Below, piece after piece: positions 7,601-64,000 of a stretch of 64,000 nucleotides of DNA. Where the stretch lies: positions 32,001-96,000 of the IMG/VR virus record IMGVR_UViG_3300044642_000074, one strand, 5' to 3'. The notes under the pieces were generated by a model that had not been told where the DNA came from, searched no databases, and saw only the letters and a list, made by a program, of their open reading frames with translations. How positions within the stretch are numbered: position 1 is the first letter of the stretch; each line of letters begins with the position of its first letter. Source of the stretch: a virus. Position numbers and translations under genes: made by a program.

Positions 7601-10227
7601 TGGACGCTAGAGAGTCAAGACTATTTTCAATATCAAAAGGTTACTTCTACTTGTTTAACTCAGGAGTACGTGACTTTTTTGTAGAGAGTGACGTTAACAT
7701 AGCATACCGTGATTGGGATGACCAGCTCGGCAGAAGACACTACGACCCCTATGAAATTGCAGATCTTAACTTACTGATGAGATCTGATGTAATAAAAGAA
7801 AGTAACATATACAAGTATGATTACTCTTTAAGTATATCTAAGCTTTTCAACTCTCAGATTACCTGGGGTAACATGCTTCCTAGGGACTATGATCCTAAGA
7901 AAGCCGAGACATGTTATGTGTATTATCCTAATAGGGTAGTCTACTCTTTGCCTCAGCAGGATGACAGTCGTAAAGACAGTTGGAGAATATATCTTGCCAA
8001 TAACTATAAGACAATGGGTGGTAGAGTTACTGCCATCAAACCAGTAAATAAGACTGGGGCATTGTTTATGATGGCTTTTCAAAGTCCACTCCAGTTTATG
8101 GGAGTAGAGGAACTAAAGCTTGACGCAACTGGTGCAAAGATTACTATAGGTGACGGTGCTTTATTTTCAGGTCCGCAACAGCTACAGGCTATTGTAAACT
8201 CTGATGAAAGCTATGAATACGGATCTTGCCAAAACAGGTTTGCTACCGTTGGTTGCACACATGGGATATTCTGGGTCAGCCAGAACCAGGGTAAAGTATT
8301 TCAGTACCAGGGAGGTTTAAAGGAAATCTCTAGAGACGGAATGAAATGGTGGTTTGCAAACTATCTTCCTAGTGAACTTCTTAAATTATATCCTAACTAT
8401 CCTTTGTATGATAATCCTGTTGCAGGTATTGGAGTACAGATGATTTATGATAATACAAATGAGATAATCTATATTACTAAGAAAGACTATAGACCAAAGA
8501 GAAAAGACTTGTTATATGATCAGGGTGGCTTTTATTATGAGGGCCCAGGGTCAACAACAATTAATACATGCCCTCCGGGTTATACCCTACAGGGGAATAC
8601 CTGTGTAGCTAATACTGCAACGTGTCCTCCAGGTCATCAGTTGATCAACGGAGTATGTACCAAAACTGAAACGATAGATCCAATTCAGTCTGGTCAGGTA
8701 GTAGAAGTATCTAGAACACCATTTGAGGTTTACGGTAATCAAGGTACAAGAGTATACAGTGCCGCTACTGTTGGTTCTACTTCTACTCTTTTAAATACAA
8801 GCAATCCATTTTGGATACGTCAAGTTAGTCCGGCAAACTGGAACTCACTTACTGCAGATCAGAAACAAGCGTTTGATCTTAACAATGGACCGGTAAACCG
8901 TATCTCTATATGGGGGCGTACACTATCCGGATCTACTGTACTAAATAACTATAACCACAGCGGTGCTGATCTAAATCCTGTTAGTCAATGGATTGGCTTC
9001 GATGTTTGTATAAATATCACAACAACTAAGACATACTATGTAGCTATTGCTGCAGACAATGATTACAGGTTTTCTTTGGACGGAAACCTGATCTTAAGTG
9101 ACACTGGTGGTACTACTGCTACTTTTAACTTCCTTCATATCTACCCTGTAACTATTACAGCTGGTAGTCATATACTTCGTTTGGAAGGGAAGAACAACGG
9201 TCAGAAAGCAGGATTTGGTTGTGAGATTTTTGACCTAGATAACAGACCAACTGGTACCAGTGTGGTAGATTTCTTAAATGCTCAGACGAGCTACGATAAT
9301 TTGATTGTAGTCTTTACAACCAGAAACGTAACACAGTTTTCTTCTAACCTGTACACCTGTCCTGTTGGATATGGTTTAGCTAACCCTACCTGTACAGAAC
9401 CTGTATGTCAAAGAATTACTACAGCTGCTCCTGTGTTTGATACAAAGCAGCCTACTGTAGTTACAGTAAAAAATAAGATCTACTGCAACTTTGATAAAGG
9501 TGAATGTTGGGAAAATGCTAGCTGGACTATTTCTTACGATCCTAAGACACAGACCTGGATATCATTTCATGATTGGATTCCAAGCTTCCTGATTCCTGGT
9601 AAGGCTCACTTCATGAGCGTTAACATGAACTCTATATGGAAGCATAACATTCGTTGTGATAAGTACACTAACTTCTATGGTATAGACTATCCGTTTGAGG
9701 TAGAGTTTGTATCAGCTACCGGTCAGGTAGTTAATTCTATGAGAAACATAGAGTACTTAATGGAAGCATATAAGATGCACAATGACTGCCGTGATAAGTT
9801 TCATGTACTAGATGCAAACTTTGATCAGGCTATTATACATAATTCAGAACAAATATCCGGTCTTCTTGAACTTGAACTGAAAAGCAAGACTAATCCTGTA
9901 GCTATGTTGAGCTATCCTCAGGTCCGTACTCAGTCTATTGGAATAAACTATTCTAAGGAAGAGAATAAGTACAGGTTTAATCAGTTCTGGGATATCACGC
10001 GTAACCGCGGAGAGTTCCAGGGAGTGAATGTTCCGATGTTTAACACAGAACCAAACGGATATAAGTTTCAAATAAACCCTACTTATGTGAACTATAATAA
10101 ATCTCCACTGGAGCGTAAGAAGTTCAGACATAACGTAAACAAGGTATTCTTAAGAAAATTAGTAAGTAATGATACCAAGTATCTATTTAAGATATCTAAC
10201 CAAAAGATTCTACAAAGTCCTAGATAA
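4684..10227 (+). CDS. Tail stabilisation/muzzle protein with Cys-repeat and PA14-like insertion
   Basis: 1847 aa; N-terminal NTFSKGMVKD, YMRDEQYAFFI, GGDIYINRF and C-terminal WTISY..WISFHDW motifs typical of crAss-like muzzle proteins; follows the ring genes. Confidence 0.7.
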   Translation: MAEQRQNNPGAVTNTFSKGMVKDFNDTFVGEGLWTHARNAVNNSHDGQLGVIGNEPANLHCVTLPYDLIGVIHLRDDQWAVYTTNDVDSEIGVFDESQCTYTKKVNDRCLNFRRTNLITGISRRRFDCERPVYWADGRNPDRFMDLDNPPFKFTESIQNGCVTKTYTNQLDCEKIRLASLVTAPCIVLEKGKGAGTLPNGSYQVCLAYTINQVKITDYMGLSEVQSVFHHDNVKSSLEVKITQVDQNFDEFELVILAQINGETIARRIGYYSTNQGTIYIDTLSNESPTVPINQVVVRTEPIERSDTMYQVNDYALRVGVYTKYKFNYQLQANNIRSSWVAVEYPAEYYKKGGNNTGYMRDEQYAFFIRWVYNTGERSESYHIPGRSALPTEKDIVVNADAYEAANGVTVQRWQVYNTATIEGRTATLLADGGRVIGTGRMGYWESTEKYPDDRPDIWGNLCGQPIRHHKFPDETCDTAATNRVLDTFSQSGSKIVILGVQFENITHPLDNNGNPITSIVGYEILRGSRQGNKTVIGKGLLNNMRTFKLPEDTTNERLFQNYPFNDLRADSYLTTEFQSGTNGSPDVKSSKMTGYKKNIFSFHSPETTFSQPFVNATELKVYQQLSGTATGRFIIPHKHPKFKLPTNFADTISDVLGVVQQIADITSLIAGAAPTINLQGTSDLPFTQSLITPHRQESLSGIFAGVTSGWVGTTGAPGADTAASSRRSIANTAITVANGIVMVTLAAFKANVTSEQVFRLILALVPYRQYAAQYVSHGFYNQAVNQPLDFRRRFVTNTSYVGADVATFGSSYQIYNLNRNRFVAVEIPQATELNPPTVVDNSRFIISERNAELNKDLTSTISSLYGALKIPLDAQYGQLESIKQIPISSCVFNTVANTTSKFITPVLFGGDIYINRFTEKNNMLFFNTWLMGEPNGAELDYTLYFSMPYSRFWVNNTDLNGGLFEGASNFRVLDARESRLFSISKGYFYLFNSGVRDFFVESDVNIAYRDWDDQLGRRHYDPYEIADLNLLMRSDVIKESNIYKYDYSLSISKLFNSQITWGNMLPRDYDPKKAETCYVYYPNRVVYSLPQQDDSRKDSWRIYLANNYKTMGGRVTAIKPVNKTGALFMMAFQSPLQFMGVEELKLDATGAKITIGDGALFSGPQQLQAIVNSDESYEYGSCQNRFATVGCTHGIFWVSQNQGKVFQYQGGLKEISRDGMKWWFANYLPSELLKLYPNYPLYDNPVAGIGVQMIYDNTNEIIYITKKDYRPKRKDLLYDQGGFYYEGPGSTTINTCPPGYTLQGNTCVANTATCPPGHQLINGVCTKTETIDPIQSGQVVEVSRTPFEVYGNQGTRVYSAATVGSTSTLLNTSNPFWIRQVSPANWNSLTADQKQAFDLNNGPVNRISIWGRTLSGSTVLNNYNHSGADLNPVSQWIGFDVCINITTTKTYYVAIAADNDYRFSLDGNLILSDTGGTTATFNFLHIYPVTITAGSHILRLEGKNNGQKAGFGCEIFDLDNRPTGTSVVDFLNAQTSYDNLIVVFTTRNVTQFSSNLYTCPVGYGLANPTCTEPVCQRITTAAPVFDTKQPTVVTVKNKIYCNFDKGECWENASWTISYDPKTQTWISFHDWIPSFLIPGKAHFMSVNMNSIWKHNIRCDKYTNFYGIDYPFEVEFVSATGQVVNSMRNIEYLMEAYKMHNDCRDKFHVLDANFDQAIIHNSEQISGLLELELKSKTNPVAMLSYPQVRTQSIGINYSKEENKYRFNQFWDITRNRGEFQGVNVPMFNTEPNGYKFQINPTYVNYNKSPLERKKFRHNVNKVFLRKLVSNDTKYLFKISNQKILQSPR

Positions 10228-57008: not shown

Positions 57009-57281
57009 ATGGCAAAGAAGTTTTACGCCCAGAAGGATGTCCTGGGTTTTCCTATTCCTGGTACTATGATGAGTGGAGAAAAGGTTCCTGCCAACTTGAT
57101 TGAGATTCCTGCACAGAATGTTGCTCCTGGAGCTGGTCAAGTAGCTGTACCACACCCTGGTGATCTTCGCTATTTCGTACGTAAGGACAAGAGTGGAAAG
57201 ATCATCCCTAACTCACTGATTATCAGTTTAAAAAAGCCTGCTGGGGATGTTTATGAGTTTAAACTTATAAAGGCTAGCTAA
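57009..57281 (+). CDS. Hypothetical protein, possibly structural
   Basis: First gene of the + block. Confidence 0.6.
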   Translation: MAKKFYAQKDVLGFPIPGTMMSGEKVPANLIEIPAQNVAPGAGQVAVPHPGDLRYFVRKDKSGKIIPNSLIISLKKPAGDVYEFKLIKAS

Positions 57282-57283
57282 TC

Positions 57284-57589
57284 ATGCAGAGAGAAAGTTC
57301 AGCTATAGCAGCATTTAAAGTCTGGGTTTTCCCTAGTCTTGTGTCTATTATAAGTCTGTTAATCTGGAATGACGTCAACGAGATAAAGGCTGATGTCAAG
57401 GCTCTTATGGCCCAGTCTAACATTGATAAGACCAGGATTGATAATCTTGAGCGACAGGTTTACGGATCTAAGACTGCTAGTCTACCTGAGAAACCTGCTC
57501 AGAAGCCTCCGTTTTTGAATGAACTGTACGCAGTTCTACCGTCTCCGGAGAAGAAACATAAATATAAAAAGATACTATATGACTTTTAA
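57284..57589 (+). CDS. Single-TM coiled-coil protein (holin/antiholin-like)
   Basis: TM at about aa 9-29 then a coiled coil; in the lysis cluster. Confidence 0.5.
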   Translation: MQRESSAIAAFKVWVFPSLVSIISLLIWNDVNEIKADVKALMAQSNIDKTRIDNLERQVYGSKTASLPEKPAQKPPFLNELYAVLPSPEKKHKYKKILYDF

Positions 57590-57827
57590 ACAATGGATTC
57601 TAGATCTATTCAAAGATGAGAGAGGTTCTACCTCGATCAAACCTGTTGTAGGTTTTATGGGGGCCTTGTTTCTCTGTATAACTCTTACTGCTAACTCTTT
57701 TACTCACGGTGATATTAAACCTTCTGATGCTCTTGTGGATGCTGTACTGATTATGACCTGTGTAGGTATTGGAGCAGACAGTGTAGATAAATTTAGCCAC
57801 AAGAAAAAGAAAGAAGATGAAGCTTAG
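57579..57827 (+). CDS. Putative holin (2 TM, basic C-terminus)
   Basis: From the ATG at 57579: two hydrophobic helices and a KKKKEDEA tail; upstream of the endolysin. Confidence 0.55.
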   Translation: MTFKQWILDLFKDERGSTSIKPVVGFMGALFLCITLTANSFTHGDIKPSDALVDAVLIMTCVGIGADSVDKFSHKKKKEDEA

Positions 57828-58449
57828 TAAATATGCCATTATAGTTCTAGCAGTAATTGGTCTGATTATTTTATCCAGATTAGGTTGTAACAACGGTCTT
57901 GGGTTTTTTGATAAACCTACAGCAGACACTGTAGTTACTATTGATACTTTATGGCAAGAACATGATACAGTAATCTATAAAAAGGTACCTGTAAAAGAAA
58001 TCATTTACGACATAGATACTTTGCCTCCTCAGTATATTCCAGATACAAACTATGATAAGTTAAAAGAACAGTATGAGCTTCTTGTAAAAGAGCATGCTTC
58101 TAAAGTAATTCAGTTTGATACACTTAGAATACCCCAGCTTAAAGGCGGATTTTATATAAAGGATACTGTTCAGTTTAATAAAATATCTGGAAGATCATTT
58201 GAAGCTGATTATGTTATACCTGTTGTAAAAGAAACAATTACTATTACAAAAGAAACTCCTAAAAGGAATCAGCTATATATTGGAGGTGGTGTAAATACTG
58301 CTAAAACATTTGTGCCTCAGTCACTAGAAGCGGGGCTTTTACTCAAAACTAAACGTGATCAGATAATGGGTGTAAAAGCCGGATCTGATATTAACGGTAA
58401 TATAACATACGGCTTCCAGAGTTACTGGAAGATTGGATCTAAAAAATAA
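57817..58449 (+). CDS. Membrane-anchored spanin-like protein
   Basis: N-terminal TM ending in LGC, DT-rich stalk, C-terminal amphipathic beta strands. Confidence 0.5.
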   Translation: MKLSKYAIIVLAVIGLIILSRLGCNNGLGFFDKPTADTVVTIDTLWQEHDTVIYKKVPVKEIIYDIDTLPPQYIPDTNYDKLKEQYELLVKEHASKVIQFDTLRIPQLKGGFYIKDTVQFNKISGRSFEADYVIPVVKETITITKETPKRNQLYIGGGVNTAKTFVPQSLEAGLLLKTKRDQIMGVKAGSDINGNITYGFQSYWKIGSKK

Positions 58450-58455
58450 ATAAAC

Positions 58456-58617
58456 ATGAAAAGTATCGTAAAGATGCTTCTTGGTCTGTTTAAGAAAAAA
58501 GTTTCTAAACAGGTTGAAGAAGTTAAAGAAAAGGTTATGCCTGTAGAGGTAGCTCCTGCACAAGAAAAAAAGAAGAAGAAATATTATCATCCTAAGCCTA
58601 AGAAAGCTAATATCTAA
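58456..58617 (+). CDS. 53-aa Lys-rich peptide, absent from the ORF track
   Basis: MKSIVKMLLGLFKKKVSKQ...KKKKKYYHPKPKKANI*; fills the gap; A-rich leader. Confidence 0.55.
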   Translation: MKSIVKMLLGLFKKKVSKQVEEVKEKVMPVEVAPAQEKKKKKYYHPKPKKANI

Positions 58618-58631
58618 TTAATCTGTATCCT

Positions 58632-59231
58632 ATGAATCTTGAAAAACTTAAAGGCCACGTGCCGGATTCTGTTATTGCACAGATTCCTGGTGTGATTGAT
58701 AGCTTTGCTGTTAATACCCCACTTCGTTTGGCTCATTTTTTAGCTCAGTGTGGTCACGAGTCTGGTGGTTTCAGGCTTACGCAAGAGAATCTAAACTATT
58801 CAGCTAAAGGTCTTATGGGAATCTTCAAGAAGTATTTCCCTACAGAAGCTTTAGCTAATGCTTATGCACGTAAACCTGAAAAGATTGCTAACCGCGTTTA
58901 TGGTTCACGCATGGGTAATGGTCCCGAAGCTAGTGGTGAGGGTTACAAGTTCCGCGGTCGTGGTTATATTCAATTGACTGGTAAACAGAACTATACTGCA
59001 TTTGATGCTACAGTACCTGAAAGTATTGTAGATAATCCAGACTTAGTGGCTACTAAATATCCTTTAGCTTCTGCTGCATGGTTCTGGAGCAAGAACGGTC
59101 TTAACACTCTTGCTGACAAAGGAGCTTCTGATATTAATGTTACTGCTATTACAAAGCGTGTAAACGGTGGTACAATCGGTTTGACAGATAGAATTAAACA
59201 CTTCAAAGAATATCATAACCTGCTGGTATGA
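58632..59231 (+). CDS. Glycoside hydrolase family 19 endolysin
   Basis: AHFLAQCGHESG, ENLNYS, FRGRGYIQLTG.NY and ITKRVNGG. Confidence 0.92.
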   Translation: MNLEKLKGHVPDSVIAQIPGVIDSFAVNTPLRLAHFLAQCGHESGGFRLTQENLNYSAKGLMGIFKKYFPTEALANAYARKPEKIANRVYGSRMGNGPEASGEGYKFRGRGYIQLTGKQNYTAFDATVPESIVDNPDLVATKYPLASAAWFWSKNGLNTLADKGASDINVTAITKRVNGGTIGLTDRIKHFKEYHNLLV

Positions 59232-59440: not shown

Positions 59441-59923
59441 ATGAATCTTAGGGGTTTTTTTATTGTATTATTTTCTTTTTTGTGTGTATCAGTATACTCA
59501 CAAAATATTTTTATTGATAGTGTCCGTAATAACATAGCTACTGGTCCACTAACAGCTAACAAAAATCTGAGTTTTGGTGTGAAGAATATTCTAGCCGAAG
59601 TACTTCAGGATAAAGGTTTGGACTTACTTCCAAAAAAACAAGAAGCAGAACTTAGTCTAGTAACTGAGATCTACTTTTTTGATATTACACAAACCAATGC
59701 AGGTGTATCTGTTTTTAAAAAGCAGAGTAACACTACAGTAATGGGTTTAAAGGGTAGCCTTTATAAAAACGGGAAACTAGTTAGTTCTAAAAAAGTAGAA
59801 GAATCCTCTTCAGAGGTAGTGATGGCTAATCTGGTAATTCCCGAAGACGGAAAACCTAATCAGCAATCAGTTAGTAATGTTATAAAAAAAGCCTGTCAAG
59901 CTTTAATTGACAAACTTCTATGA
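59441..59923 (+). CDS. Exported protein, short CsgG-like/DUF-type fold
   Basis: Signal peptide ending YS|Q; FGVKNILAEVLQ resembles LGVTNIIVEYLE of the 63029 protein. Confidence 0.55.
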   Translation: MNLRGFFIVLFSFLCVSVYSQNIFIDSVRNNIATGPLTANKNLSFGVKNILAEVLQDKGLDLLPKKQEAELSLVTEIYFFDITQTNAGVSVFKKQSNTTVMGLKGSLYKNGKLVSSKKVEESSSEVVMANLVIPEDGKPNQQSVSNVIKKACQALIDKLL

Positions 59924-61821
59924 AAAAACTTTTGCTTGCCTGCTTAGCTATAGTGTTTACTAGTTTGGGTTATTCTCAAACTATTGGTCATTTCCAACAG
60001 TTAGCTTCTGTTAAAAGAGGGGACACTTTAGATGTGGCCTGGTATTATCAACCAAGTGGTTCAGTTGATGTCAGAACATTTCAGGTAGATTTTCAGTTTA
60101 AAAAGCATCTGTTTACTCACATAAGTACTACTATTGATACACCATATGTTACTGTTGGTAGACAACCGCAGCTTGGGTACAATCAGTTTAATAACTTTAA
60201 GTATGACAACTACGTAAACGGAAACTATACTTATGGAGCTGATACTAACTGGGCAGTTGGACGTAACTATTTAACACTTCCTGCTGGCAGTGGTTTTGGT
60301 ACTGGTAATGGATATATTATCCATAATAAGTTTAAGATTAATGAAGTACAGTCTAACTTTGTATCTGATACAATTACTGTTAACTGGGCTCGTCTCTTTA
60401 AAGTAGATGGAACTACTATTGGAGATAACGTAGCAACTCTTACAAATAAGAAGCTTGCTATTTTCTTACAGGGTAACTTGACTATCTCAGGAAAGATCTG
60501 GATGGGGTCTAATACCGGCTTGCCAACGATTATTGCATATGCTGATAATACAGGTATTGAGGTTTCTCGTACAGTTCCTGCAGCCAATGGTACATATACT
60601 CTGACAAATATAGAACAGAATACTAAGTATAAGATAAAGGTTGTTTTCTCAAGAGATAGTCTAATCACAATGCGTGATCGTGCAGTAACTATTGCTGATG
60701 CTGTGAAGACTTATAATGAATTTACCGGAGCTAATGTTAGCCAGACATTCCCAAGAACTTTCTTGACAAACGGTCTTGCTTATTTGATTGCAGATGTCAG
60801 CCGAAACGGAGTCTTAGATGGTGGTGATCCTTATGGAATTTATGCTTCTGTATCAGGTCTAAGACCAATTGATACTGCACGTCTTGTAAATGTTTTCTTA
60901 AAGAATGAGTTTGATTCTTTGGCCATAGCAGCAAATCAGTGGACTAGTTGGGCAAGTAATGTAGACAAGGGTCTGTTTGTATTTGACTCTGTAGGTACTG
61001 TTAATAATACTAACGTAGACATTAAATACTTCTTATTGGGTGACGTAGACCGCTCACATTCTTCACCTGTGTTTAATGCACAAGGTCAGCAAGTTGCCCG
61101 TACAATCTATAAGGGAAATATAAATGTTAGAATCCCAGATACTTATACAAACTCTAGTGATCCTCTCTATGTACCCTTCAATGTAAGTTATGCTAGTTAT
61201 AAAAATACAGGGTTACAGTTTGAGATGAAGTATGATCCTGCTGTTGTTAGGTTTGACCAGATTCAGTCTAACATAGATGGTCCATGGCTTCAATATGTGA
61301 CTAACGATAGTATTGCTGGTATCATCAGATTTGGTGGTATGAACAACCAAACAACCGGATATTTAAGTGGTGACTTTACTCCTTATAAGCTAAAGTTTTC
61401 TCCTAAAAATCTAGGAACAAACATAACAAGTTACGTATATGTTAGACGTCTTATGGATGCTAGTGATGAGAACGGTGATCATTATAACATCGTACTTCAG
61501 TCAGATAGAATTGTTCTTAGCTACCGTATGAACGGTGCTACCTCTGTCTTTACAAATATGGAGCCTACTGTAAATGTTAGTCCTAATCCTAATACAGGTC
61601 AGTTTGAACTAGTGGTATTTGTACCGCGTAACTCAACTATGAAAGCCGTGGTGTATGATATGAACGGAAAATTGATTAGAGAGTTAGGCAACTTTAAGAC
61701 TGAAGATGCTGAGCAAAAATTTCGTAAAACCGTACCTACAGGGGACCTTCCTGCCGGTATGTATAATATAGTACTCTTTGATAACCGTAAGAGATATACT
61801 ACTAAAATGATTAAATCCTAA
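59920..61821 (+). CDS. T9SS type A CTD protein with dockerin-like and cohesin-like domains
   Basis: Signal peptide; ADVSRNGVLDGGD and LGDVDRS; GLQFEMKYDP cohesin-like strand; CTD VSPNP..G.F...VYDMNGK...LPAGMY...KMIK. Confidence 0.8.
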   Translation: MKKLLLACLAIVFTSLGYSQTIGHFQQLASVKRGDTLDVAWYYQPSGSVDVRTFQVDFQFKKHLFTHISTTIDTPYVTVGRQPQLGYNQFNNFKYDNYVNGNYTYGADTNWAVGRNYLTLPAGSGFGTGNGYIIHNKFKINEVQSNFVSDTITVNWARLFKVDGTTIGDNVATLTNKKLAIFLQGNLTISGKIWMGSNTGLPTIIAYADNTGIEVSRTVPAANGTYTLTNIEQNTKYKIKVVFSRDSLITMRDRAVTIADAVKTYNEFTGANVSQTFPRTFLTNGLAYLIADVSRNGVLDGGDPYGIYASVSGLRPIDTARLVNVFLKNEFDSLAIAANQWTSWASNVDKGLFVFDSVGTVNNTNVDIKYFLLGDVDRSHSSPVFNAQGQQVARTIYKGNINVRIPDTYTNSSDPLYVPFNVSYASYKNTGLQFEMKYDPAVVRFDQIQSNIDGPWLQYVTNDSIAGIIRFGGMNNQTTGYLSGDFTPYKLKFSPKNLGTNITSYVYVRRLMDASDENGDHYNIVLQSDRIVLSYRMNGATSVFTNMEPTVNVSPNPNTGQFELVVFVPRNSTMKAVVYDMNGKLIRELGNFKTEDAEQKFRKTVPTGDLPAGMYNIVLFDNRKRYTTKMIKS

Positions 61822-61825
61822 TACT

Positions 61826-62143
61826 ATGTCAGAAGAACAAGTTCAACAAGAAGAAGGTACCTGGTCAAGTCTTAAGAAGACTATTGTAGGTACACTTGCT
61901 ACAGTTATTACTGGTGGTGGAGCTTATGTAGCTACCACATTATTTGGTGGAGGTGACGCTGCTCAACCTGCAGCTCCTGCTCAGCCAAGTATCATCATTA
62001 ATAATACACAGCAACAACAGCAGCAACAGGCTGCCGGTAAGACCGTTATAATTAAAGAGGCAGCTCCTGCCGCAGCTAAACCTGCAGAAGAGAAACCTAA
62101 GCCTAAGAAAGATGACTGGGCTAAAGAAGAACCAAAGTGGTAA
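61826..62143 (+). CDS. Membrane-anchored Q/P/A-rich protein
   Basis: TM at about aa 19-41, poly-Q, KP-rich tail. Confidence 0.65.
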   Translation: MSEEQVQQEEGTWSSLKKTIVGTLATVITGGGAYVATTLFGGGDAAQPAAPAQPSIIINNTQQQQQQQAAGKTVIIKEAAPAAAKPAEEKPKPKKDDWAKEEPKW

Positions 62144-62159
62144 TTTATAAACAAACTAT

Positions 62160-62777
62160 ATGACTAAGGAAAAAACAAACGAAACTGGTTTTCAAGCTTT
62201 ATTGAACGCTATGATGAAAAGACGCTGGTTTATTACAGCGTTAGTACTAGGATCTTTTATGTTGATAATCGGTGGTATATTCTCCGCTATCACATATAGC
62301 ACTCCGATTCAGGGTGAATGGAAAGAACTTTTACTACTCTTACTTGGTGCCTTTATTGGTAGTTATGGTAAGATCATTGACTACTGGTTTTCTGATACAG
62401 ACAAAGACAAGATGCTTGTCCAGAAGATGGATGAGGAAGACGGTGTTAGTCTGTCTCATACCAACGACATGAAAGAGTCAGCTAAACCTGCTAGTACCAG
62501 TCTTGTAGACCCAACCTTTGCCGCATTTGCCGCAAAAGCTGCGGAGAATAAAGAACCAATCACCGCAGAAACAAAATCTGCTGAAGCTGCACCTGCTAAA
62601 AAAGGTGTAGAGATTGATGAAGATGGAGACGGTGTTATGGACGGTCTTGACTTTGATGGTGACGGTAAGATTGACGAATACTTTGCACACAGACAGTGTG
62701 AGCATATTTGGGGTGACGCTGATGGAGACGGTGATGAAGAGTGCCTTAAGTGTGGCAAGATAAAAGATCCGGAATAA
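62160..62777 (+). CDS. Two-TM membrane protein with DxDGDG repeats and Cys/His motif
   Basis: Two TM helices; DEDGDG, DFDGDG, DADGDG; CEH...CLKC. Confidence 0.7.
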   Translation: MTKEKTNETGFQALLNAMMKRRWFITALVLGSFMLIIGGIFSAITYSTPIQGEWKELLLLLLGAFIGSYGKIIDYWFSDTDKDKMLVQKMDEEDGVSLSHTNDMKESAKPASTSLVDPTFAAFAAKAAENKEPITAETKSAEAAPAKKGVEIDEDGDGVMDGLDFDGDGKIDEYFAHRQCEHIWGDADGDGDEECLKCGKIKDPE

Positions 62778-62810
62778 TATTTTTCACTTAATCCTGTAAC
62801 ATGGAAGCTG

Positions 62811-63032
62811 ATGAACAAAAGAAACAGACTAAAGATTTTACGTTCCTCTCGGGATATAAGCTTGATGTTGGCAATGTTCTTTTTGCCATTAGGTTACGAT
62901 CTTTTATTCAAGACGCTCTTAAACATCACGGGCAGTTTTTGGGTTACCGATATCATATTTTATTGTATATCAGGCTTATTCTGGCTGCTTTACTTTTTAT
63001 TATCCAAGACTTTAAAGTCTAATAATGTATGA
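62811..63032 (+). CDS. Small two-TM membrane protein
   Basis: MFFLPLGYD..F..W; ATGA-coupled to the 63029 gene. Confidence 0.6.
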   Translation: MNKRNRLKILRSSRDISLMLAMFFLPLGYDLLFKTLLNITGSFWVTDIIFYCISGLFWLLYFLLSKTLKSNNV

Positions 63033-63790
63033 AAACTACCAAAGAAAATCTAAGAATAATCCTATTGGTTGGTTTATGGTTCTTGTTTATGTTTTTAATC
63101 AGTTCTGTACTAACTAAGTGTACTGCTCAAACTGTAGGATCTACAAAAACAGAACAATACCAAGCTGGTTTTGAAAAGAAAGTAAACATTGATTCCTTGA
63201 TGGACTATGACGGTCCAACTATTCCTGTTCAGTTGTTGAATATAGGAATCAGTGAAGAGGTGTATGCTATATACCCAGAACTTAAAGACAAACGTGTCGG
63301 TCTGGGCGTTACTAATATCATTGTTGAGTATCTGGAGGAAACCGGTAGGTTCACCTTTACAGAAGATAAGACAGAGATCAAGAACCGTATGGTAAAACAG
63401 TTTCAGGCATCTGCCTCAGGTTTTACCGAGAATAAGCTTGACGGTAAAGGCAAGATAAAACTTGCCCGTTATTTTGTTTACATAGAAGTGTATGACTTCT
63501 CTGTATCTGTAGATGAGGAGTTGAAGCTTAAAGATGGTGTTAAAGAAACTATGGTTACACGCCTTGGTCTACAAGCCAAGTTTGTAGATGCTGAAACAGG
63601 AGAATACTTCACTGCCTCAGGTCTTGGAGAAGCTAAAACAGTTAGAGAGCTTACTCTTCTTAATGATGATAACCTCTCTGAGATTAAGTTCAACCAATCA
63701 ACGATTGGTATCACTACTAAGAAAGCTCTGGAAACAGCGGCTTCAAGAGTAGTTCTGCGTATGATAAAGAAGCAGATCTTTAAAAACTAG
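63029..63790 (+). CDS. CsgG/HfaB-like (curli-assembly fold) exported protein
   Basis: GVTNIIVEYLEETGRFTF.E, ARYFVY.EVYDF, LQAKFVDAETGE...SG.G and KKALE.A, the CsgG-family layout. Confidence 0.7.
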   Translation: MKTTKENLRIILLVGLWFLFMFLISSVLTKCTAQTVGSTKTEQYQAGFEKKVNIDSLMDYDGPTIPVQLLNIGISEEVYAIYPELKDKRVGLGVTNIIVEYLEETGRFTFTEDKTEIKNRMVKQFQASASGFTENKLDGKGKIKLARYFVYIEVYDFSVSVDEELKLKDGVKETMVTRLGLQAKFVDAETGEYFTASGLGEAKTVRELTLLNDDNLSEIKFNQSTIGITTKKALETAASRVVLRMIKKQIFKN

Positions 63791-64000
63791 TGTGGCACCG
63801 CGCCTTTTATATCATATTATTGCTTGCTTTTACTTTGACTGCAAGAAGTCAGGTGTTGACGTATCCGTTTACAGATCCTTGTACAAAGGTCGTGACTACG
63901 TTTACAATACCTGTAACGGGTAATACTACTATTTACTTTCTGGGAAAATCAGCCTCGTTTACTGCAGCAGATGTCAGTAGCGGGGCTTTTGCTGTTTGGA
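63790..64000 (+). CDS. Exported protein, 3'-truncated by the window
   Basis: GTG at 63790 opens MWHRAFYIILLLAFTLTARS|QVLTYPFTDPCT..., open to the window end. Confidence 0.6.
   Translation, partial: MWHRAFYIILLLAFTLTARSQVLTYPFTDPCTKVVTTFTIPVTGNTTIYFLGKSASFTAADVSSGAFAVW

Follow-up and report, generated by a model that had tools for sequence, protein, structure and literature searches.

The window, a 64,000-nucleotide stretch of the IMG/VR virus record IMGVR_UViG_3300044642_000074, ends inside a run of closely spaced genes. Seven open reading frames (A–G) were confirmed between positions 59441 and 64000, all on the + strand. Overlaps of 4 nt join A to B, E to F and, past the window edge, G to H; F and G overlap by 1 nt, and the remaining gaps measure 4 to 33 nt. 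This bears out the tightly coupled run after the endolysin described in the original prediction. A–F lie wholly inside the window, but G is cut at the window edge (461 aa in full) and is followed by an eighth gene, H, which encodes a lectin.

Upstream lie a GH19-type endolysin (58632..59231, + strand; PF00182, E = 1.5e-9; phrog_181 endolysin, E = 7e-70) and five lysis-type genes (pre1–pre5; 57009..58617, + strand), whose putative roles are read from topology only. Pre1 and pre5 are short (90 and 53 aa), pre2 (101 aa) combines an N-terminal transmembrane (TM) segment with a coiled coil, pre3 is holin-like with two TM segments, and pre4 (210 aa) starts with a signal or lipobox-like LGC; none of the five matched a PHROG. 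From 57009 to 66617, 15 genes form a single + strand block, with a divergent AT-rich region at one end and a closing stem-loop (window-equivalent 66630-66661) at the other. Because the lysis genes and the cassette share this gap-free, same-strand block, they probably form one transcription unit. The cassette core consists of A, B, C, F and G, usually accompanied by the head protein H, and all core products bear export or membrane signals. The four predicted signal peptides ending before Gln were recovered in A (VYS|Q), B (GYS|Q), F (CTA|Q) and G (ARS|Q), and H has the same arrangement (TQA|Q).

F (63029..63790, + strand; 253 aa) had been described as CsgG/HfaB-like in the original prediction. 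Pfam and NCBIfam searches called neither A nor F CsgG directly, so the assignment of F needs profile and fold evidence. The F family profile matches the E. coli CsgG chains (E = 7.5e-4), and 18 of 54 F relatives match PF03783 (best E = 1.9e-17). In a Foldseek search, the AF2 model of F (pLDDT 87) has CsgG as its best matches (E = 7e-8), and VIA-align superimposes the two with Z 14.1 and an rmsd of 3.1 Å over 173 residues, the next family reaching Z 10.7 and decameric TraT Z 8.0. Long β-hairpins are modeled where CsgG has its membrane hairpins, and a conserved Y-P occupies the position of the CsgG constriction loop. Judged by profile and predicted fold together, F is a true but divergent CsgG homolog belonging to a phage-specific, non-lipidated clade. 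This clade lacks the lipobox Cys, which is kept in distant, probably bacterial, relatives, and carries a charged ELKDKR stretch in place of the CsgG constriction residues N55 and F56. Neither curlin repeats, already reported as missing, nor CsgF were found anywhere in the genome.

A (59441..59923, + strand; 160 aa) is an exported protein with an SPI-type signal followed by Gln. Alignment of the A and F families with hhalign gives a probability of 83-85%, with two common motifs in the same order, and among 34 A-family members PF03923 (YajG-type lipoprotein) is weakly matched by 14 and TraT by 4. A is probably a short paralog of F, and would probably keep a CsgG/LptE/TraT-type α/β core without the long hairpins. 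The CsgG-like label given earlier to both proteins stands for F by profile and fold; A would share it as a probable paralog.

G follows F directly (63790..64000 in the window, + strand; whole gene at window-equivalent 63790-65175, or 7790-9175 in L001). Its AF2 model comprises a signal peptide, a small Cys-pair domain with a long helix, a disordered S/N/G-rich stalk of ~120 aa and a C-terminal 12-stranded outer-membrane barrel. VIA-align places this barrel closest to the NalP translocator (Z 23.5), followed by EspP, EstA, AIDA-I and Hbp (Z 19.7-22.3), with KdgM and FapF at Z 18.4-18.6. The C-terminal domain is therefore modeled as an autotransporter-like barrel, its class being tentative because the barrels of KdgM, NanC and FapF are just 4-6 Z units behind. 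A Pfam search with 46 G-family members gave no match.

B (59920..61821, + strand; 633 aa) consists of a signal peptide, an N-domain, an Ig-like region, a dockerin-like module (285-384), a cohesin (about 402-520) and a C-terminal sorting domain (CTD; 553-633). The predicted T9SS CTD was upheld by both PF18962 (34.3 bits; cut-off 27) and TIGR04183 (37.3 bits; cut-off 23) and is the only one in the genome. By these curated domain matches, B qualifies as a genuine type-A cargo protein of the T9SS. The cohesin, PF00963, is matched by 18 of 33 B-family members (best E = 4.8e-10), B's own match being weak (E = 0.032; 14.9 bits against a Pfam cut-off of 24.1). The dockerin-like module is common to B and H and is atypical and below the Pfam threshold, with one clear Ca loop, a ~60-aa spacer and a terminal GDVNxSHSS. 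It was called from motifs, two sub-threshold Pfam matches (E 0.02-0.03) and a language-model look-alike, the ESM features of B pointing to Dockerin_1 clusters (0.94).

H (L001 9172-10617, window-equivalent 65172-66617, + strand; 481 aa) couples a C-type lectin domain (PF00059, 24.2 bits; cut-off 22.6) to a dockerin-like tail. The EPN...WND sugar site is intact in H and kept in 32 of 32 distinct H-type proteins. Head types vary by locus, with Lectin_C in forms of 480, 584 and 764 aa and PA14 at one locus (L014). As read from the predicted domains, parts of the cassette are fused and split differently from phage to phage. The Flavobacterium phage immuto divides B into gp014 (N-domain and dockerin-like module) and gp015 (cohesin and CTD), one locus (L016) fuses the lectin, dockerin-like module and cohesin, and in one subgroup B has no CTD and the next gene encodes a lipoprotein of 118-120 aa that weakly matches Por_Secre_tail.

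Three membrane proteins lie between B and F. C (61826..62143, + strand; 105 aa) is predicted to be a bitopic inner-membrane protein, with an N-terminal Gly/Thr-rich TM segment leading into a Q/N-rich and P/A/K/E-rich periplasmic tail with a conserved ...PKW end. It contains no coiled coil, occurs in 73 of 84 cassette loci, and over its first 47 residues is 55% identical to immuto gp016. D (62160..62777, + strand; 205 aa) spans the inner membrane twice and has an acidic tail with DxDGDG and a Cys cluster, and E (62811..63032, + strand; 73 aa) is a small 2-TM protein. D is present in 52 of the 84 loci. In the cassette-less sisters L104, L119 and L122, which lack pre3, it stands alone beside the GH19 lysin. 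E is restricted to close relatives and some cassette-less sisters; its matches in two of the latter (L113 and L116; 49-51% identity) favor its reading frame over an overlapping one at 62801-63022. D and E had been named as membrane partners of the apparatus, a role that is not supported: both also occur next to lysis genes where the cassette is missing. They are more likely holin-type lysis-timing proteins, separable from the block but traveling with it.

The order A-B-C-(D)-F-G-(H) recurs in 84 loci and is syntenic in the 80 viral contigs kept from 592 matches, so that the genes are indeed co-conserved; A is found in 78 of the 84 loci. Only ~11 of the 84 share backbone genes with this phage, and F retains a median identity of 72% between unrelated backbones. 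The F family is phage-specific: 592 matches were confirmed in IMG/VR, whereas 185,579 species genomes gave 3. Of 401 Bacteroidota genomes, a single one has a close F, located on a 112-kb contig whose layout resembles that of this phage, and 47 carry distant CsgG-like genes only. Most of the block is also found in immuto, a cultured myophage (gp013-gp019; gp019 matches A weakly, E = 0.007), where replication-type genes surround it and the annotated endolysin is ~8 kb away. The cassette is a mobile block of many phage backbones, and the oddity for a crAss-like podophage that was originally suggested is not supported as a peculiarity of this one phage. Among the 58 loci flanked on each side by 3 kb or more, a GH19 homolog lies within 1 kb of the cassette, on either side, in 39 and is missing nearby in 19. 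In sister phages sharing this backbone, pre1-pre4 and the lysin are retained but A, B, C, F, G and H are missing, which marks the cassette as accessory and dispensable on this backbone, rather than as lysis machinery. We found no published description of it.

Given the co-conserved genes, the modeled CsgG fold of F and the phage nature of the contig, the multi-component envelope apparatus of the original prediction is a fair reading. Superinfection exclusion, aggregation, grazing defense and release, the functions named with it, are no more than candidates. Our best reading, to which we give slightly less than an even chance, is that positions 59441-64000 cover the first two thirds of an 'envelope cassette' that spreads horizontally among phages, inserted here at the 3′ end of the lysis operon in a crAss-like phage with a Bacteroidota host, and that the cassette specifies a late-made envelope complex displaying exchangeable sugar-binding heads. 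Late in infection, the host T9SS would export B and fix it at the cell surface, where dockerin-tagged heads (a C-type lectin here, PA14 elsewhere) could plug into its cohesin. Together with the barrel-and-stalk protein G, F (probably ring-forming) and its short paralog A would lie in the outer membrane or beneath it, and the inner-membrane protein C would reach toward the base formed by F, A and G. The likely benefit would be an altered cell surface around the time of lysis, either masking receptors on infected cells and debris or sticking infected cells to neighboring cells or particles. Two observations speak against surface display. H carries a signal peptide only, with no known route over the outer membrane; a CsgG-type pore would pass unfolded chains only. 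In addition, the subgroup without the B CTD and without H has nothing visibly T9SS-dependent, which leaves the periplasm or the outer membrane, not the surface, as a possible site of action for the conserved core. This widely shared, dispensable cassette appears to send phage-made proteins into the envelope of the infected cell, probably altering its surface.

The close linkage to a GH19 lysin and to the holin-like D fits a role in release as well as it fits one in surface display. The cassette could belong to the lysis machinery, forming an envelope-spanning complex to open or weaken the outer membrane, or a CsgG-type lysis-timing pore, working with the lysin and the holin-like D and E. Its likely co-transcription with these genes and the GH19 neighbor at 39 of 58 well-flanked loci are consistent with this, like spanins it would place parts in the inner membrane (C), in the periplasm and in the outer membrane, and a lysis-timing role has been proposed for phage CsgG (PMC9004378). 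We nonetheless consider it unlikely. The sisters that keep the lysis genes show that the cassette is not needed for lysis on this backbone, immuto carries it away from the endolysin, 19 of the 58 loci have no GH19 gene nearby, C has no coiled coil, and lectin or PA14 heads on a cohesin scaffold are of no obvious use in membrane disruption. F and/or G might instead form a conduit of the curli or Fap kind, exporting an unfolded phage protein to make fibers or a coat outside, or letting macromolecules in. The CsgG fold of F (Z 14.1), the likeness of the G barrel to the amyloid exporter FapF (Z 18.5), the Q/N-rich stretch in C and the long low-complexity segment in G point this way, as do published proposals of 'sibling capture' and uptake for the CsgGF of pelagimyophages (PMC7029224). 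Such a conduit is improbable, since curlin repeats and CsgF are missing from the genome, the cassette has no conserved repeat-type substrate gene, C is membrane-anchored with no cleavable signal, and the F clade has lost the lipobox Cys and exchanged the constriction N and F for charged residues.

The remaining alternatives are less likely still. Plasmid TraT blocks mating, and CsgG/TraT-fold rings of A and F at the outer membrane might likewise block incoming phage DNA or receptors, the other genes being unrelated cargo. The similarity of F to decameric TraT (Z 8.0) and the weak TraT matches of 4 of 34 A-family members would agree with such surface exclusion, but the match is far weaker than that to CsgG (Z 8 versus Z 14), placement in a late lysis block speaks against early exclusion, and strict synteny and domain fusions suggest that the other genes are partners; we regard it as very unlikely. 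That the region comes from the host or from a chimeric assembly, as the three matches in metagenome-assembled bacterial genomes might suggest, is scarcely credible. It lies inside one 114.8-kb contig with a crAss-type TerL, portal and MCP and even G+C across the region, the family has 592 confirmed viral-contig matches plus one cultured phage, and the single close F among 401 Bacteroidota genomes is on a phage-like contig.

The envelope cassette resembles several known systems in part. Pelagimyophages (HTVC008M type) and the OM43 phage Melnitz are likewise lytic aquatic phages with a CsgG-fold outer-membrane protein in a variable region and no curlin subunits (PMC7029224, PMC9004378). Their CsgG/CsgF 'partial curli operon', for which a link to lysis has been discussed (PMC7029224, PMC9004378), differs in that the hosts are Proteobacteria and both proteins are recognizable and of proteobacterial origin. 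Here, F belongs to a phage clade of its own that is not lipidated, gives no direct Pfam match and occurs without CsgF, and it has fixed partners: a T9SS cargo protein (cohesin and dockerin-like), a lectin, an autotransporter-like barrel and a short F paralog. Compared with E. coli CsgG, the type VIII secretion channel (PDB 4UV2/4UV3), the F clade shares the fold, hairpins and Y-P position, but lacks the lipobox Cys, has ELKDKR in place of N55/F56, and occurs in a genome without CsgF or curlin. The G model agrees with type Va autotransporters (NalP, EspP, EstA, AIDA-I) in its C-terminal 12-stranded barrel (Z 19.7-23.5), with the rest of the protein N-terminal to it. It differs in having no sequence match to that family and in its 'passenger', a ~100-aa Cys-pair domain and helix on a ~120-aa disordered stalk. 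'Cryophage', a phage of a Bacteroidota-type host, also encodes proteins with type-A T9SS sorting domains, including a PA14 protein, that vary among phage variants (Bellas et al. 2020, PMC7468147). There, single variable enzyme or PA14 genes each carry their own CTD, whereas here the CTD is confined to one scaffold within a fixed cassette of several genes, and the heads that vary end in a dockerin-like tail, with no CTD. Finally, cohesin–dockerin assemblies (cellulosomal anchoring scaffoldins and non-cellulosomal pairs) likewise have a cohesin adjoining a surface anchor signal, several Ca-loop dockerin-like proteins and exchangeable heads. The present assembly would differ from them in its atypical putative dockerin, in being anchored by T9SS rather than by SLH or sortase, and in bearing lectin heads rather than enzymes.

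The cassette lies on a single viral contig of 114,808 bp (the window covers bases 32001-96000), which also encodes a portal, a major head protein, a giant ORF of 4,603 aa and a large terminase of crAss type (~25% identity to crAss-like phages); G+C is even across the contig. Fifteen tightly packed plus-strand genes form one block running from 57009 to window-equivalent 66617, with minus-strand genes on both flanks. The block starts after a divergent AT-rich gap and ends at a 13-bp stem-loop (66630-66661). Its first genes are of lysis type. They include pre2 and pre3 (both within 57284-57827, + strand), the former an i-spanin-like protein with a transmembrane (TM) segment and a coiled coil, the latter a holin-like protein with two TM segments and a charged tail, as well as pre4 (+), which carries a lipobox-like signal. 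A GH19 endolysin (58632-59231, +) comes after the pre genes and is followed by A (an exported protein of 160 residues), B (a type IX secretion system (T9SS) cargo protein), C (a bitopic inner-membrane protein), D and E (two-TM proteins, D with a DxDGDG motif), F (CsgG-like, 253 residues) and G (a barrel protein of 461 residues, +). The rest of G lies beyond the window edge, as does H (a lectin protein of 481 residues, +). The tight run of genes after the endolysin is as the original prediction described it: all the listed ORFs were found with their features, and neighboring genes overlap at their start and stop codons or are spaced by a few bases. Pre3 starts at 57519 or at the internal 57579; the first start gives a ~70-nt overlap with pre2 in a different frame, which the second removes. 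A further case is a pair of 73-aa ORFs, 62801-63022 and 62811-63032, that overlap out of frame, the second being favoured as the coding frame by matches of ~50% identity in distant sister phages.

Searches of Pfam, NCBIfam and PHROGs gave no family call for A, C, D, E, F or G. Signal peptides ending before Gln, predicted for four proteins, are seen in A, B, F and G and also in H. Bacteroidota substrates of signal peptidase I have been described with this pattern of Gln after the signal peptide. From this pattern, the T9SS sorting domain of B and the hosts of relatives, we infer a Bacteroidota host. The same lysis-plus-cassette layout is found on a 111,986-bp contig, close in size to this phage, in a Sediminibacterium MAG (Chitinophagaceae; JBBAJS010000010.1); the contig is probably a phage genome inside a bacterial bin, and the bin hints at the host group.

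Judged from its relatives and its predicted fold, F is a divergent CsgG. Neither F nor A matches PF03783 at E <= 1, a six-frame genome search at E <= 10 gives no match to this family, and NCBIfam makes no CsgG call for F. The F relatives form ~6,100 clusters at 90% identity, many labelled CsgG by JGI, and only 250 clusters at 50% identity in an exhaustive search. PF03783 is matched by 18 of 54 diverse relatives (best E 1.9e-17), LpoB is matched by nine of the 54 in the same alignment, and the F-family profile finds the E. coli CsgG chains with an E of 7.5e-4. Since relatives and profile match CsgG and F itself has no Pfam match, F is best described as a distant member of the superfamily rather than a member of the Pfam family. 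The monomeric AF2 model of F (pLDDT 87) agrees with this placement. In Foldseek, CsgG chains fill ranks 1-22 (best E 7e-8), and VIA-align superposes the model on CsgG with a Z of 14.1 (r.m.s.d. 3.1 Å over 173 residues), the next family reaching Z 10.7; with membrane-bound CsgG, 193 residues align. Thus, the prediction that F is CsgG-like stands at the level of the modeled fold, with its alpha/beta core and long hairpins, but not at the curated Pfam cut-off. CsgG itself assembles as a nonameric pore of 36 strands.

The phage-type proteins have distinctive features, as seen in an alignment of 19 F sequences from 17 viral loci and two MAG contigs. Most lack a lipobox cysteine, their signal being of SPI type with a Gln after it; an atypical LTKC-TAQ occurs in this phage and in one other locus (L009). 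Distant, probably bacterial, relatives retain ...GC/AC ahead of the mature end. In the profile alignment, YPELKDKRVGLG of F lies opposite YPASNFSTAVPQ of CsgG, the constriction loop containing Tyr 51, Asn 55 and Phe 56. Y-P is retained at this position, and the charged ELKDKR replaces the Asn and Phe of CsgG. As anticipated, there are no curlin repeats; genome-wide searches at E <= 10 found neither PF07012 nor CsgF (PF10614). F probably has a short paralogue in A, as suggested by a profile comparison of the two families (probability 83-85%) and by a motif pair present in the same order in both (N[KR]NLxFGVKNI vs DKRVGLGVTNI; KFNQ..S..KK). A search of PDB profiles with the A family returned only noise. 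Some A-family members weakly match YajG-type lipoprotein and TraT models, and TraT is also among the folds matched by the F model.

The AF2 model of G consists of four parts: a small domain with a cysteine pair, a long helix, ~120 disordered Ser/Asn/Gly-rich residues and a C-terminal barrel. The barrel (residues 248-461; pLDDT ~80-90) is 12-stranded and aligns best with NalP (Z 23.5, r.m.s.d. 2.6 Å over 227 residues), followed by EspP, EstA, AIDA-I and Hbp (Z 19.7-22.3). The NalP and EspP alignments begin at residues 78-84 of the model and so take in helix 85-125, which is modeled at a pLDDT of only ~60 and ends ~120 disordered residues ahead of strand 1. In type Va autotransporters, an alpha-helical linker passes through the barrel immediately before strand 1. 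A FapF-type exporter was considered and rejected: FapF scores Z 18.5, about the same as 12-stranded porins (Z ~18.5) and below the autotransporters, so the FapF link is not specific. At the sequence level, scanning 46 members of the G family against Pfam (E <= 0.05) gave only low-complexity noise, and PDB profile searches with the family gave noise and no outer-membrane protein. The G homologue in immuto, a cultured Flavobacterium myophage, ends in ...GGKLTF, which resembles a BAM-type C-terminal signal.

B is a T9SS cargo protein, as originally predicted. It has an N-terminal Sec signal peptide, MKKLLLACLAIVFTSLGYS followed by Gln, with a hydrophobic stretch at residues 4-22, and residues 553-633, at the extreme C-terminus, form a sorting domain that passes both curated thresholds (PF18962, 34.3 bits vs a cut-off of 27; TIGR04183, 37.3 bits vs 23). 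A six-frame search recovers this C-terminal domain (CTD) at 37.4 bits and finds no other in the genome. The CTD is present in 16 of 33 B-family members. A cohesin domain (PF00963) scores below its cut-off in B itself (14.9 bits vs 24.1; E 0.032) and is matched by 18 of the 33 members (best E 4.8e-10), reaching 36.8 bits in the B-type protein of L007, another of the loci compared. The N-domain of B was tried as a second cohesin, which was not established (hhalign probability 9%), and PDB profile searches with the B family returned only noise.

B (285-384) and H (395-481) have in common a ~100-residue module with a DVNxNGxxDxxD loop, which forms the C-terminus of every H-type protein. Dockerin (PF00404) matches the module only below threshold, in two relatives (E 0.02-0.03), and its ESM features map to Dockerin_1 clusters at 0.94 (18 of 30 hits). 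One calcium loop is clear in its sequence, whereas dockerin has two calcium-binding repeats. H further contains a C-type lectin domain (PF00059, 24.2 bits vs a cut-off of 22.6) with an EPN motif at residue 235 and a WND motif, both kept in all 32 distinct H-type proteins. In C-type lectins, EPN and WND mark a Ca-dependent mannose-type site. At other loci, the same dockerin-like tail carries a PA14 head or a longer form of the lectin. The domains are also partitioned differently among phages. Immuto splits B, with the dockerin part apart from the cohesin-CTD part; in one subgroup B stops after the cohesin, and a separate lipoprotein of 118-120 aa has a weak CTD-like match; and in L016 lectin, dockerin-like module and cohesin form a single fusion. 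Such splitting and fusing is the usual sign of proteins that work together, and on the strength of this domain fusion and fission we infer that the cohesin of B may bind the dockerin-like tails.

Gene-neighborhood conservation was borne out: the 84 loci compared keep A-B-C-(D)-F-G-(H) in almost unchanged order, and only ~11 of them have backbone genes in common with this phage. Cassette-bearing contigs range from ~10 kb to 321 kb and belong to unrelated backbones, from ~100-kb crAss-like phages to 320-kb jumbo phages. The median identity of F is 72% where the genomes have nothing else in common, which points to strong selection acting on contact with a conserved host structure. The cassette is abundant, with its ~6,100 F clusters and, in a search using F as bait, at least 592 confirmed viral-contig matches in IMG/VR; the same search gave three matches in 185,579 species genomes, all in MAGs. 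Of 401 Bacteroidota genomes, a single one has a close F, namely a MAG whose 112-kb contig is phage-like, and 47 others have distant CsgG-like genes, which indicates that the phage clade is not a recent capture from a host. The single close F in these genomes, the viral-contig matches and the crAss-type genes of the contig itself together led us to reject a host chimera. In immuto, gp013-gp019 comprise most of the cassette, gp019 matching A only weakly, and their annotation in the record does not go beyond lectin, cohesin and hypothetical proteins. Directly upstream, gp012 (L005 5193-5771) encodes a DNA/RNA endonuclease of NUC1 type that carries a signal peptide, a position suggesting that in some phages the cassette is accompanied by exported enzymes. 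Four close relatives (L009, at 7687-8999, and L010-L012) have a Zn-ribbon gene and a DUF2589 pair (PF11655, E 4e-30 and 2e-14) between E and F; this insert lacks export signals and is missing from this phage.

The position of the cassette could also mean that it is lysis machinery or a release device. It shares a single unbroken block on one strand with the lysis genes, and in 39 of 58 well-flanked loci a GH19 homologue is no more than 1 kb away from the cassette, on either side. Against this, sister phages found with the conserved 502-aa downstream gene as bait provide a natural control. Eight of them (L103, L104, L108-L111, L119 and L122) share their flanks and pre1-pre4 with this phage but have none of A, B, C, F, G or H, and most cassette-less sisters retain the GH19 lysin, which argues against an essential lysis role; in immuto, moreover, the cassette sits among replication-type genes. 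On this backbone, the slot that separates the lysis genes from the convergent 502-aa gene (window-equivalent 59231-66787) is a cargo hot spot, occupied in cassette-less sisters by M15 peptidases (PF08291, PF13539), collagen-repeat fibre-like genes or small TM proteins. The cassette as a spanin equivalent is likewise rejected for this backbone, because the sisters keep their lysis genes without it. A two-component spanin pairs an i-spanin, which has an N-terminal TM segment and a periplasmic coiled coil, with a small lipoprotein of the outer membrane. C has the TM segment, but its tail is Pro/Ala/Gln-rich rather than a coiled coil; pre2 and pre4 are better, though unproven, spanin candidates.

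D and E are a separate matter. The original prediction counted both as membrane partners of the apparatus, which the wider comparison does not bear out. A homologue of D (62160-62777), 54-55% identical, stands alone beside the GH19 lysin in L104, L119 and L122, where the two-TM pre3 is missing, and homologues of E are also present in phages without the cassette. D and E are therefore read as holin-type proteins traveling with the block, and D and pre3 may be alternative holins.

The picture that we favor over a lytic function starts from what is observed, namely the export signals, family and fold assignments, synteny, domain fusion and fission, variable heads and dispensability of the cassette. 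B would reach the cell surface through the host T9SS, and the heads would dock on its cohesin. At the outer membrane, F and A may assemble into a ring next to the barrel and stalk of G, with C reaching up from the inner membrane. Taken as a whole, this joint model is plausible, though we put it slightly on the doubtful side. Two points weigh against it: H has a signal peptide only and would need a route across the outer membrane, and the core of the cassette would need a role in the subgroup that has neither the CTD of B nor H. The cassette might mask receptors on infected cells and debris, or serve in adhesion or exclusion. The earlier interpretation as an envelope apparatus holds in part, for the export signals, synteny and fold of F, but not for a specific function or for D and E as partners. 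The broader reading, a transferable, self-contained 'surface-conversion' apparatus of Bacteroidota phages that combines a scaffold exported by the host T9SS, sugar-binding heads plugged in by a cohesin-dockerin-type joint, a phage-specific CsgG-like ring and an autotransporter-like barrel, is more speculative and, in our estimation, rather unlikely.

Should the joint model hold, phages would use the Bacteroidota-specific T9SS to redecorate their hosts, and the cassette would be a natural modular display system. In lakes and seas, this would matter for how phages and hosts interact through aggregation, attachment to particles, superinfection and the progeny lost on debris. If the 'surface-conversion' reading were true, it would represent a new class of phage-encoded envelope machine, and infected cells and debris would stick differently to phages, cells or particles. 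Since immuto (host strain LMO8) is cultured and carries most of the block, the cassette is directly testable.

A literature search found no paper on this cassette, but its elements have precedents. CsgG and CsgF occur without curlins, and with no assigned function, in pelagimyophages and phage Melnitz (PMC7029224, PMC9004378), and phage-encoded T9SS cargo, including a PA14 protein, has been described in 'Cryophage' (PMC7468147). Compared with CsgG, the phage F lacks the lipobox cysteine, has the charged ELKDKR in place of Asn and Phe, and is encoded in a genome without curlin or CsgF. The type Va autotransporters have a C-terminal 12-stranded barrel like that modeled for G, though G has no sequence match to that family. 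The cassette is a widespread variant on both known phage CsgG and phage T9SS cargo.
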